Source: Promethearchaeota archaeon
Lineage (GTDB): Archaea; Asgardarchaeota; Lokiarchaeia; Sigyniarchaeales; SOKP01
Length of the DNA: 64,000 nt
Direction: 5' to 3'
Assembly: GCA_019057795.1 (NCBI GenBank)
Contig: JAHLWS010000026.1
Location: 1-64,000, forward strand
The number at the start of each line of letters is the position of its first letter. The stretch's first letter is position 1. Positions 15,715 to 55,102 of the stretch are shown one piece after another. Position numbers and translations under genes: made by a program. The notes below the pieces were generated by a model. That model was not told where the DNA came from. It searched no databases and saw nothing but the letters and a program-made list of their open reading frames with translations.

Positions 15715-16752
15715 ATGCTACAAGAAGAAGAGAGTTATCGATTGACACTGCAAACAAAATTATTCGGATGAAACTGTAAACTTGATTCTAAAAAATTAGA
15801 CGAATTATTGGCTGGTGCTGGCTTGAAAGGAGATATCGAGGATTCTGCTGTAATTCCCGTACCAAACACCGATTTAGTACTGGTAAAAAACATTGACATC
15901 TTTACACCGATTATCGACGAACCAGATATAATGGGTGAAATTGCTGCTGCAAACGTCACTAACGATGTTTTCGCGCTAAATGTTCTAGACATCTCAGGAA
16001 TGCTTATATTTCTAGGCTTGAAAAAAAATATGCCTATGCACATCGCAGAAGGAATATTAAAAGGTATTAGAAATTTCATGGAAAATAAAATACACTCGAA
16101 AGTACTTGGAGGGCATACAATCTATTCAGAATGGCCTTTAATTGGTGGTGAAGCTTCAGGATTCGTCAATAAAAACAAACTGATTAAAAAGAACTATGTA
16201 GAAGAAGGCGATAGATTAATACTGACTAAACCCGTAGGGAACCAAGCAATCATGGCTGCATATCGCTTACAAAAAAACAGACCAGACCTCTTAGAAACAT
16301 ACTCCAAAACCAAAATAGATAAATCAATCGATTTGGCCATAGAATTTATGATCATGCCGCTACAAAACGTTGTAAAGACTATTCATTCTTATCAAGATGT
16401 ATCTTTCGTACATTCAATGACAGATGTTTCCGGTTTTGGACTCTCAGGACATTTAAAGGAAATGCTCCAAGACTCTGACCTTTCAGCTAATATTAAGAAG
16501 GTCCCGATATTTAAACTAGCAAAAGAACTATCGTACGATTTTGGATACAAATTCGATGAATGCGAAATGCCTGAGACCGCCGGGGGCATGCTCCTTTCTG
16601 TCGATCACGAATATGCTGAAGAATTTTCCAAGAGACTTGCTAATGAATTTCATGTGCCTAATTGGATTGTAGGAACAATCGATAATATTAATGAACCGCA
16701 ACTTGTTCAAATTTCGAAAAATGTTGAACATGTTGAAATAACTAAAATTTAA
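15715..16752 (+). CDS. selD: Selenophosphate synthetase 1, selenoprotein (Sec19, TGA 15769-15771)
   Basis: MLQEEESYRLTLQTKLFG-U-NCKL is in frame with ORF 15808. DIFTP, GGHT, LTKP, TDVSGFGL, ETAGG motifs. GAGGTGA upstream; SECIS downstream. Confidence 0.93.
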
Positions 16753-16823
16753 CGATGTCAATGAAATAAGCTAAAACACTATATGTGAGCGCTTATTGAG
16801 AGTACCCTTGCAAGACGGCATCG
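16753..16823 (+). promoter_or_regulatory. Eukaryote-like SECIS element of selD copy 1
   Basis: Helix I CGATGTC/GGCATCG; ATGA(16761)...TGAG core; helix II ATAAGC/GCTTAT; apical AAAA; mini-stem CAC/GTG. Confidence 0.88.
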
Positions 16824-17248
16824 AAAAGCTTTACTGTTTTTATTTTCTATTTATAATTAATTTTCCAAATCTTGAACTTCACTTAGATTTTTTCGCTTCC
16901 ATTCTTTTAAGTACCATCTAAAAAAACGCTTTGAAAACCCTAAAGAATTTACATTTTGATTGAAATAATCTTCAATTTTTTTTTGTTTTAACCGGAAAAT
17001 AAGCATACAATAAAATGACTTAAGTAGTTTTTAGTTACCTTGAAAACCAACTGTTTTATTAAAGATGTTATAACATGGGTGTAATATTTGTTTTAAAATT
17101 GAATTTGTTTGCTTATCGAAAAGGTTGATAAATAGAATCGATATTATTAATAAATAAGAATGATTTTTTCAATTAACAATTCTTGATTCCTTTAGTAAAC
17201 AATATTTAATCAACAAAATTTAAAATAAAATAAGATTTGAGGTGAAAA

Positions 17249-18277
17249 ATGGAGAAAAAGGAAGTATATAGACTTACTTCACAGGTTAAGATTCACGGAT
17301 GAAGTTGTAAGCTTGGTCCAAATACCTTAGAGAACTTACTAGCGAGAGCGGGATTACAAGGAGATATTGAAGATGCTGCAATCATCCCAGTCCCAAATAG
17401 TGATTTAGTCATGGCCAAAAATATTGATGTTTTTACTCCTATTGTCGATGAACCAGAAGTTATGGGTCAAATTGCTGCGTCTAATGTAACCAGTGACATA
17501 TTTGCGATGAATGTTCCACACATTTCGGGAATGTTAGTATTTTTAGGGATTAATACTAATACTCCAATGGAAGTAGCTGAAGGAATATTAAAAGGAATCA
17601 AATATTTCATGGAAGAAAAAATTAATTCGCAAGTAGTAGGAGGGCATACTATATATAGTGAATGGCCAATGATTGGAGGAGAAGCGTCGGGTTTTGTTCA
17701 CAAAGACGCAATAATTCTAAAACAAGGAGTTAAAGAAGGAGATAAATTGATTTTAACCAAACCGATTGGCCTACAAGCGATTATGGCTGCTTATAGGACT
17801 CTTAAAGATATGCCCGAAATGTTAGAGCAATATTCAAAAAGTGAACTACAAAAATCAATTGGTTTTGCTATAGAATTAATGACAACACCAAATCAGAATG
17901 TAGTAAAAACTATTCATTCTTATCAAGATTTTTCATTCATTCATGCAATGACAGATGTGACGGGTTTTGGGTTAAGTGGTCATATTAAAGAAATGCTGCA
18001 GAATTCTACCTTATCTGCAATCATTGAAACCATTCCATCAATAAGATTTTCAAAGGAACTTTCAGAAGAATTAGGATACGCTTTTGATGATTGTAGCTGT
18101 CATGAGACTGCTGGAGGGATGTTGATTGCTATTGATCCTAAAAAGGTTGAAGAATTTTCAAATACTCTTAATAGTAATAGTATAGAGAATTGGATTGTAG
18201 GTACAATTGATAATATTGAACCAGGCTTAGTTAGAGTTTCTGATAATGCAGAAAATATTGAGCTTATCAAGTATTAG
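17249..18277 (+). CDS. selD: Selenophosphate synthetase 2, selenoprotein (Sec18, TGA 17300-17302)
   Basis: MEKKEVYRLTSQVKIHG-U-SCKL is in frame with ORF 17411. GAGGTGA at 17239-17245. Paralogue of the upstream gene. Confidence 0.93.
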
Positions 18278-18351
18278 AGATGTCTTTGATATAAGCAAAA
18301 AACACTTGGATAGTGAGTGCTTATTGAGTTTTCACCCGTAAGGTGACATCT
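18278..18351 (+). promoter_or_regulatory. Eukaryote-like SECIS element of selD copy 2
   Basis: Helix I AGATGTC/GACATCT; TTGA...TGAG core; ATAAGC/GCTTAT; A6 bulge; CACT/AGTG mini-stem. Confidence 0.85.
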
Positions 18352-18359
18352 AAAATAAT

Positions 18360-26384: not shown

Positions 26385-26488
26385 GGGGGCGTGGCGAAGC
26401 TCGGTATAACTTTGCCCTTTCGGTGCATAGTGCTAAACGCGGCAGGCTCCAGACTTGTTGGTCACCGGTTCAAATCCGGTCGCTCCCA
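26385..26488 (+). tRNA. tRNA-Trp(CCA) with 28-nt D-arm intron (26409-26436)
   Basis: Acceptor GGGGGCG/CGCTCCC; anticodon arm GCAGG-CTCCAGA-CTTGT (CCA 26449-26451); T-arm ACCGG-TTCAAAT-CCGGT; BHB motif GGTA-TAA/TGCT-AAA. Confidence 0.92.
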
Positions 26489-53928: not shown

Positions 53929-54126
53929 ATGCCTTTAAAATTCCTTGAAAATGAAAGAAACAAAAAAATATTCATTGCTATTATTATCATAGCACTGGTT
54001 ATTACTTTTGCTACTCTCATCTCTGTAGCAGTCATTAATTTCATCCCCCCAGATGATAACGGAGGAGGATGACTTTGCTTAGCTGTTGGTTATCAAAAAA
54101 TATTTTTAAACATAATATTAAAATAA
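53929..54126 (+). CDS. Putative 65-aa single-pass membrane selenoprotein (Sec48, TGA 54070-54072); not in ORF track
   Basis: MPLKFLENERNKKIFIAIIIIALVITFATLISVAVINFIPPDDNGGG-U-LCLAVGYQKIFLNIILK*; SECIS core starts 3 nt after the TAA. Confidence 0.72.
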
Positions 54127-54129
54127 AGG

Positions 54130-54182
54130 ATGACTTTTGCGAGAAAATTCTAGTCGCAAAACGACTTACCCCGCAAGGGTAA
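54130..54182 (+). promoter_or_regulatory. SECIS element (third copy) with 3' GNRA hairpin
   Basis: ATGAC-TTTTGCGA-GAAAATTCTAG-TCGCAAAA-CGAC, then TTACCCC-GCAA-GGGTAA. Confidence 0.78.
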
Positions 54183-54304
54183 AAAGAAAAAAAATAATAT
54201 AGTATGAAATAGTATGAAATATTTATTAATTTATTAATTAACAAAATTCTTATAAATACCTAAAACCTCTTAAATTACACGATTTTGTTTAATGGTATAA
54301 AAAA

Positions 54305-55102
54305 ATGTCAAAACAAACTCCCGAGAATGTTAAAGAATCTCTACGTTTGATTGGATTAACGGATTACGAGATATCGATATATTTAACCTTAATTTCAAAA
54401 GGACCTATGGACGCAAGAGAGCTTTCTGAAGCCTCAAGCGTTCCATATTCTCGAATTTATAACATTTTAACTCAATTAGAAAAGGATAAAATGTGGATTT
54501 TAAAGGAGGAAGAATCAAGACCGTCGAGATATTTCGCAAAAAGCCCTGATGAAGCTTTGGTAATCGCAAAGAAACAATACAGTGATAGTTTCGACGAGTA
54601 TTCAGACACAATTATTCGTGAACTTACCCCCATTTACGAATCTCACGATACACCGATAAAAATTGCGTTATATATTCACCGGGGAAGAGATGTTTGTATT
54701 AATAGAGCTTTAACTTTAATAAAAACAGCAAAAATGGCACTATACTTTGTCACACAAGATTACGAATTTTTAGATGTGTTTTACGAGGAAATAAAAAAAG
54801 CAAGAGCTCGAGGAGTCACAGATATTAGATTATTAGTCGAAGAAGTAGTAGTAAAGGATAAAAAATTTAAAGAAATCATTGAAAAATACGCTCAAATCGC
54901 TGAAATTCGTTCCCGTGATCAAGTTTTTGGGACTAGCTTGGTAATGGACGAAGGGGAAGATGCCTTTATAATTTTGACACAAGACATTTTTAAAAAGTTA
55001 TCGTATTTTGGCATTATGGCCGACCATATCGCTTTTGGACCAGCTAGCAATTTTTATTTTATGTACTTATATAAGACGGCTGATATAGTTAATTTAAAAT
55101 AG
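54305..55102 (+). CDS. TrmB-family transcriptional regulator
   Basis: GLTDYE..Y..L, VPYSRIY.IL, RP.RY. Confidence 0.88.
   Translation: MSKQTPENVKESLRLIGLTDYEISIYLTLISKGPMDARELSEASSVPYSRIYNILTQLEKDKMWILKEEESRPSRYFAKSPDEALVIAKKQYSDSFDEYSDTIIRELTPIYESHDTPIKIALYIHRGRDVCINRALTLIKTAKMALYFVTQDYEFLDVFYEEIKKARARGVTDIRLLVEEVVVKDKKFKEIIEKYAQIAEIRSRDQVFGTSLVMDEGEDAFIILTQDIFKKLSYFGIMADHIAFGPASNFYFMYLYKTADIVNLK

Follow-up and report, generated by a model that had tools for sequence, protein, structure and literature searches.

The Lokiarchaeal SECIS (lokiSECIS), the signal for decoding UGA as selenocysteine (Sec), described by Mariotti 2016 (PMC4989117), lies close to the stop codon and combines an AUGA core, a 9-bp stem, a GA on the 3' side of the stem, and an apical loop of 11 nt that begins with about five adenines and in which the final G usually follows an A. 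Surveys of the Asgard selenoproteome, which sought mainly relatives of known families, have reported five widespread and two rare families, none of them of eukaryote type. Eukaryotic SelK and SelS, in turn, are defined by layout rather than sequence (PMC10650576); that is, by a single N-terminal helix, a Gly-rich (at times Pro-rich) stretch, and one Sec near the C terminus, a layout that resembles the one reported here.

The locus discussed below lies in a window of 64,000 nucleotides (the whole stretch of Lokiarchaeial DNA that was analyzed) and carries the same recoding signal as the known lokiSECIS genes for VhuD/FrhD, VhuU/FrhA, and PrxL (PMC4989117; Huang 2024, PMC11227280). Based on sequence comparisons, we infer that it is very probably a genuine, Sec-decoded gene and belongs to a new, previously undescribed selenoprotein family. 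The preliminary description of this DNA had proposed an unannotated membrane selenoprotein with a U-x-C motif and a SECIS of its own, and that proposal is supported by conservation, throughout the family, of TGA, SECIS, and reading frame; on re-reading the sequence, the positions it had assigned to the ATG, the in-frame TGA, the TAA, and the downstream AUGA/GA stem-loop all proved correct (Table 1). The frame opened by the ATG runs for 47 codons to the TGA and for 17 more codons to the TAA. Read through, it would specify a protein of 65 residues with a Cys two residues past the TGA and 17 residues after Sec, of which annotation has so far captured only the 47-residue N-terminal fragment.

Table 1. 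Features of the small gene and of the selD genes, in positions of the window
Feature	Positions	Strand	Observation
Start codon and basic N-terminal tail, residues 1-13, predicted cytoplasmic	53929..53967	+	Flank mean 4.1 K+R, 44 members
Single transmembrane helix, residues 14-36	53968..54036	+	Mean hydropathy ~3.0 over 19 residues; AlphaFold2 helix
Acidic/polar linker with terminal Gly run, residues 37-47, predicted extracytoplasmic	54037..54069	+	Mean 0.02 K+R, net charge about -1.4, family-wide
In-frame UGA, putatively read as selenocysteine (U48)	54070..54072	+	Sole invariant alignment column
Hydrophobic 17-codon tail after Sec; Cys50 at 54076-54078 (U-x-C)	54073..54123	+	In-frame codon periodicity
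TAA, predicted true stop codon	54124..54126	+	3 nt before SECIS core
Type I Lokiarchaeal SECIS core	54130..54164	+	AUGA, 9-position stem, 11-nt A-rich loop ending AG, GA
Second hairpin, 3' side of SECIS	54166..54182	+	Fold z = -2.6; 84% paired across family
Tandem selD copies, one in-frame TGA each	15739-16752, 17270-18277		
selD type II SECIS, closed by lower stem	~16753-16830, 18278-18352		

The element behind the stop codon has every feature published for lokiSECIS (PMC4989117). The AUGA (54130-54133) is followed by a C.C pair (54134/54162) and by a stem of 8 Watson-Crick bp (54135-54142 with 54154-54161); four of the five leading positions of the 11-nt apical loop (54143-54153) are A, and the GA stands directly 3' of the stem (54163-54164). 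The distance of 57 nt from the UGA to the AUGA core that had been noted earlier was confirmed. The preliminary description had also suggested scoring the element with a SECIS model, and for this we used a covariance model trained on only six SECIS of the same genome, all located behind known selenoprotein genes with an in-frame TGA (four VhuD/MvhD genes, one Prx-like gene, and one gene for an FrhA-type hydrogenase subunit), with the candidate excluded from training. Searched on both strands of the 64-kb window with filters off, the candidate scored 50.1 bits (E 1.5e-10), and the runner-up scored 18 bits. The whole 4.95-Mb genome held eight sites of at least 47 bits (i.e., the training sites at 50.9 to 63 bits, the candidate in seventh place, and one extra site at 47.2 bits), beyond which the best score was 22.4. 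No element of comparable score was found with this model behind an ordinary gene of this genome. The candidate stem-loop is far beyond chance and cannot be told apart from the SECIS that accompany known selenoprotein genes.

With the known lokiSECIS genes, the new gene has in common the placement of the element after the stop codon and the presence of a hairpin on its 3' side. It differs from them in that its stop codon touches or overlaps the SECIS core, in that the spacing from UGA to SECIS is only 43 to 60 nt (shorter than in the other selenoprotein genes seen here), and in that, in this genus, the lower helix of the other genes is missing. Behind the VhuD, PrxL, and FrhA genes (L087, L088, L089, L091, and L092), a lower stem of 5 to 9 bp encloses both the AUGA/GA stem-loop and the second hairpin and so forms a three-way junction; within the new family, such a lower stem is kept in genus g12 and absent in this genus. 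The second hairpin also occurs behind known selenoprotein genes of this genome. It had been described earlier as an ACCC..GNRA hairpin found in both selD SECIS of the window: the hairpin itself is present, but its loop of 5 nt (C plus GCAA) is not a clean GNRA tetraloop, and of the two selD genes, copy 2 is clearly followed by a hairpin like that of the new gene, whereas for copy 1 this is doubtful. In agreement with published work, the two selD genes carry a different, type II SECIS.

The element is conserved throughout the family. All 52 homologous loci scanned gave exactly one SECIS match each with the model built from known genes (26.7 to 57.7 bits); the AUGA is invariant among them, and the GA is present in all but one, which has the accepted variant AA. 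The stem is 92% paired in these loci versus 41 to 58% in controls with slid partners, where the alignment was fitted to the model and so favors pairing, a bias that the slid controls carry equally. Compensatory changes occur at 9/9 stem pairs, and some also occur in the second hairpin. In every one of the 44 loci in which the frame could be resolved, the SECIS match lies no more than about 65 nt downstream of the stop codon, and in 36 of them the position of the stop ranges from 4 nt within the AUGA core to 12 nt upstream of it. The final stop is itself a TGA in about a third of members, 0 to 5 nt from the SECIS core, and in three (L033, L036, and L076) it is the UGA within the AUGA core. In one locus (L068, G098:C55), no stop codon precedes the SECIS, and the frame traverses the element and continues into a long acidic extension.

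Searching 154 genomes of the order in all six frames recovered homologues, each with one in-frame TGA. The family occurs in 37 to 38 of the 41 genomes of the genus, the lower figure being that of a broader profile. Of the 134 genomes in the taxonomic family, that profile matched 98 at E 1e-3 and 90 at E 1e-4; the same profile found no homologue in 266 other Asgard genomes, barring four chance matches inside long ORFs. The named relatives are metagenome-assembled genomes of Promethearchaeota/Promethearchaeia (Lokiarchaeia) from sediments and cold seeps (e.g., Loki_b31 and ABR02). In an alignment of 29 members, in which G45 and G47 are nearly invariant, the TGA is the sole invariant column, and it is again the sole invariant column in an alignment of 30 members from six genera; nearly every confident match, in about 100 genomes, has one TGA at the place of the putative Sec. 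The search for homologues that the preliminary description had recommended thus turned up Lokiarchaeial relatives in which the TGA is conserved and a SECIS co-occurs: the TGA is never exchanged for TAA or TAG, and the stem-loop accompanies all homologues.

In protein databases, the family is visible mainly in truncated form. Among 1.84 billion representative proteins, the profile matched 21, all of which end just before the Sec position except for one spurious match, and neither this collection nor the genome searches held a homologue with Cys in place of Sec. Public records give the 47-residue fragment, unnamed or as "hypothetical protein," and two ENA entries, called under a code in which TGA is W, show W at the TGA. 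The family is absent from the earlier surveys, whether based on SECIS or on homology, and none of the 11 families of archaeal selenoproteins in a 2026 review is related to the protein. Scans of 29 members against Pfam and NCBIfam revealed no profile similarity to the known archaeal families (SelD, FrhA/VhuU, FrhD/VhuD, HdrA, PrxL, FdhA, AhpF-N, DsbA-like, and others) and no real family of any kind, only chance matches to the transmembrane helix.

What kind of protein would this gene specify? The hydrophobic segment is about 24 residues long, and the linker behind it has 6 to 13 residues in most members and is longer and acidic in one genus. AlphaFold2, supplied with the family alignment, gives a model of mean pLDDT 72 that has a confident helix over residues 9 to 38 (pLDDT 88 to 90), places the Gly-Sec motif in a low-confidence loop, and draws residues 50 to 64 as a helix of low confidence. 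The two flanks of the membrane segment differ sharply in charge (Table 1), and by the positive-inside rule the N terminus is therefore predicted to be cytoplasmic, so that the protein is probably oriented N-in/C-out with Sec outside the cell. The motif was also considered as a lipobox and the tail as a C-terminal sorting signal; we rejected the former since the motif stands 48 residues into the chain and the usual residue at -3 is absent, and the latter since the tail is wholly absent in one genus. The order of basic n-region, hydrophobic core, and polar stretch resembles that of a cleaved signal peptide, and cleavage would leave a mature extracellular selenopeptide of about 25 residues, free or loosely bound, that would hold the Gly-Sec motif. 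However, a core of about 24 residues fits a signal anchor better than a cleaved signal, and no small-x-small cleavage motif is conserved in the alignments, which makes cleavage improbable.

Beyond the UGA, the evidence for translation comes from composition and from Cys. Of the 29 aligned members, 17 have a Cys at +2 and 12 have one at +4, encoded as TGC or TGT according to lineage; in other genera, the Cys is at -3 or there is none at all. The tail shows a periodicity of base composition in register with the upstream ORF, with T at 49% of second codon positions versus 35 and 34% at the others (chi-square 37, p 2e-6; computed from 20 members whose tails share less than 75% identity, a sample of related sequences for which the p-value is an overstatement). 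This periodicity resembles that of the N-terminal part, and the 60 nt beyond the SECIS, taken as a control region, showed no codon periodicity (p 0.5). Counting open frames is circular as a test and does not discriminate, given that 26 of 40 members are open in frame +2 as well. Over 11 codons past the UGA, changes number 24, 21, and 22 by codon position, and the synonymous share in the tail codons is not highest in frame 0. Because there is no third-position excess, the tail seems to be selected for hydrophobic composition rather than for exact sequence.

Those same observations bear on whether the UGA simply ends translation, with a 47-residue membrane peptide as the product and the stem-loop acting as a 3' element in transcript stability or termination. 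This is the form that gene callers and public databases give; it would accommodate the lack of a clear synonymous excess in the tail, and in one genus only one or two codons follow the UGA. Yet a mere 3' element would have to match the SECIS of known selenoprotein genes when none of comparable score was found behind an ordinary gene of this genome, the TGA would have to stay invariant in a genome in which TGA ends 13% and TAA 72% of long ORFs, and neither the conserved in-frame Cys nor the coding periodicity beyond the UGA would be expected. We therefore regard termination at the UGA as quite unlikely. As for transcription, one 222-nt metatranscriptome contig of a relative (54054-54275, about 92% identity, depth 2) is too weak a trace to show expression.

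The C terminus takes three forms: U-x-C with a tail of 11 to 33 residues, U-P-x-x-C with a tail, and, in other genera, a chain that would stop about one to three residues past Sec (i.e., G-G-G-U-G-stop, U-C-stop, U-G-C-stop, or U-P-G-stop). Given that some members have no tail, the tail appears dispensable, and the constant core of the family, as read from the aligned sequences, is a membrane anchor, a Gly hinge, and a putative Sec.

Neighboring genes offer little guidance to function. In each of the 30 loci examined in the genus, a gene for a TrmB-family regulator lies on the same strand at a distance of 180 nt downstream, and the FGGY kinase gene upstream is inconstant within the genus. In other genera, the neighbors are a 334-residue protein of unknown function and an MFS transporter, or phosphoglycerate kinase, and a comparison of neighbors found no partner gene conserved across genera; the gene therefore looks stand-alone, with no partner indicated. 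Many members have a TATA-like box about 25 to 30 nt before the ATG, a position that suggests short or absent leaders. It is scarcely credible that the small frame is a selenium-sensing leader whose rate of UGA read-through tunes the TrmB-family gene, constant as that gene is within the genus, since in other genera the small gene and its SECIS stand beside unrelated neighbors, conservation at the protein level extends to the transmembrane helix, the pattern of charges, and the Gly-Sec motif, and a TATA-like box separates the two genes. Between the SECIS and that TATA-like box, upstream of the TrmB-family gene (54305-55102), a 10-nt unit occurs twice in tandem (54200-54219), where related genomes have inverted repeats; the tandem unit may be an operator of the regulator.

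For the Sec-decoded membrane protein, we posit a mechanism in which the SECIS directly behind the stop codon recruits the archaeal Sec-specific elongation factor, so that the UGA would be decoded as selenocysteine and translation would stop at the TAA. The product would consist of a cytoplasmic basic tail, one transmembrane helix, an acidic linker with a Gly hinge, the U-x-C motif, and a hydrophobic or amphipathic tail, and the positive-inside rule would put the U-x-C on the outer side of the cell membrane. The selenol, carried on a flexible Gly hinge, could form a reversible selenenylsulfide with the nearby Cys, and in members without that Cys an intermolecular bond could form instead. We speculate that such a protein would serve as a membrane-tethered redox arm or would bind soft metals or chalcogens, possibly in the service of a larger membrane partner. 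An outward-facing redox or metal-binding selenenylsulfide arm is a possibility that we put forward tentatively.

Might this family be an archaeal relative or forerunner of eukaryotic SelK/SelS? If it were, it would be the first eukaryote-type selenoprotein family traced into the Asgard archaea, and the members whose chain ends two or three residues beyond Sec would resemble the ancestral form most. The preliminary description had limited the resemblance to architecture, and this is borne out. None of 29 members matched the SelK/SelS Pfam profiles at E up to 10. The Gly-rich segment of SelK/SelS is basic and about 40 residues long, whereas that of the new family is acidic and about 10; the Sec region of SelK/SelS is cytosolic (type III topology), whereas the positive-inside rule predicts the opposite orientation here. 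The near-terminal Sec of SelK/SelS (second or third from the end) is matched only in some other genera, and SelK/SelS have Cys-containing homologues, in contrast to the new family, for which none is known. Because charge and length, orientation, profile, and Sec position all fail to agree, we describe the protein as one that would work like a tethered Sec arm rather than as a member of SelK/SelS, and kinship with them is a very remote prospect. Nonetheless, the common layout makes the question of origin testable.

Two further systems invite comparison. DUF466 "KCU-star" and SaoC (Haft 2022 preprint, 10.1101/2022.07.06.499078) are likewise very short, truncated in databases at the Sec codon, and dependent for their chemistry on a terminal Sec/Cys pair; unlike the new family, they are bacterial, have an in-frame bacterial SECIS, and lack a membrane anchor of this kind, and there is no sequence relation. 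The FeoB-associated Cys-rich membrane protein (PF12669) is also small, with an N-terminal transmembrane helix and a Gly/Cys-rich tail, but it has no Sec, and its profile matches 3 of 29 members with a best E of 0.18, which is not significant and apparently reflects the transmembrane helix.

If the reading proposed here is right, this would be the first small membrane-anchored selenoprotein proposed in archaea, in a family that spans most genomes of a large Lokiarchaeial family. Its SECIS is a minimal natural one: the lower helix is lacking, the stop codon is in contact with the core, and the spacing from the UGA is very short. Asgard archaea lack SBP2, and such an element would be useful for understanding how they read a SECIS of eukaryote-like form.

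As to the decoding machinery, the genome has SepSecS (484 bits), with a gene for a SelB-like factor close to it on contig 73, near 87659-88561, and in-frame TGA codons in its VhuD, PrxL, and FrhA genes in addition to those of the selD copies. tRNA-Sec was not found in the 87-contig draft, either by ARAGORN with or without introns or by Rfam above threshold; because at least eight other genes have an in-frame TGA, we take this as a gap in the assembly or a matter of tool sensitivity. Within the window, positions 26425-26480 give a partial tRNA match with Rfam (30.6 bits, model positions 10-63), where ARAGORN reports no tRNA in the window; this may be an intron-containing or split tRNA.

Searches that start from the SECIS still uncover hidden genes, and the same genome holds further candidates. 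On contig C63 (minus strand, AUGA 23732; L093), a zinc-ribbon-like micro-ORF that contains four in-frame TGA codons has a SECIS-shaped element behind it, a weaker one that the covariance model failed to recover at E 1. A SECIS of 47.2 bits on contig C24 (minus strand, AUGA 23608; L090) stands behind no recognized selenoprotein gene. One of the frames upstream of it encodes a small peptide with a double C-x-x-C that has TGA and then TAA at its end, and an additional hidden selenoprotein is possible there. Finally, on contig C78 (plus strand, AUGA 176805; L094), a SECIS-shaped element lies 9 nt past a stop codon; the frame that this stop closes reads through three TGA codons, of which two are adjacent and come after G-C.
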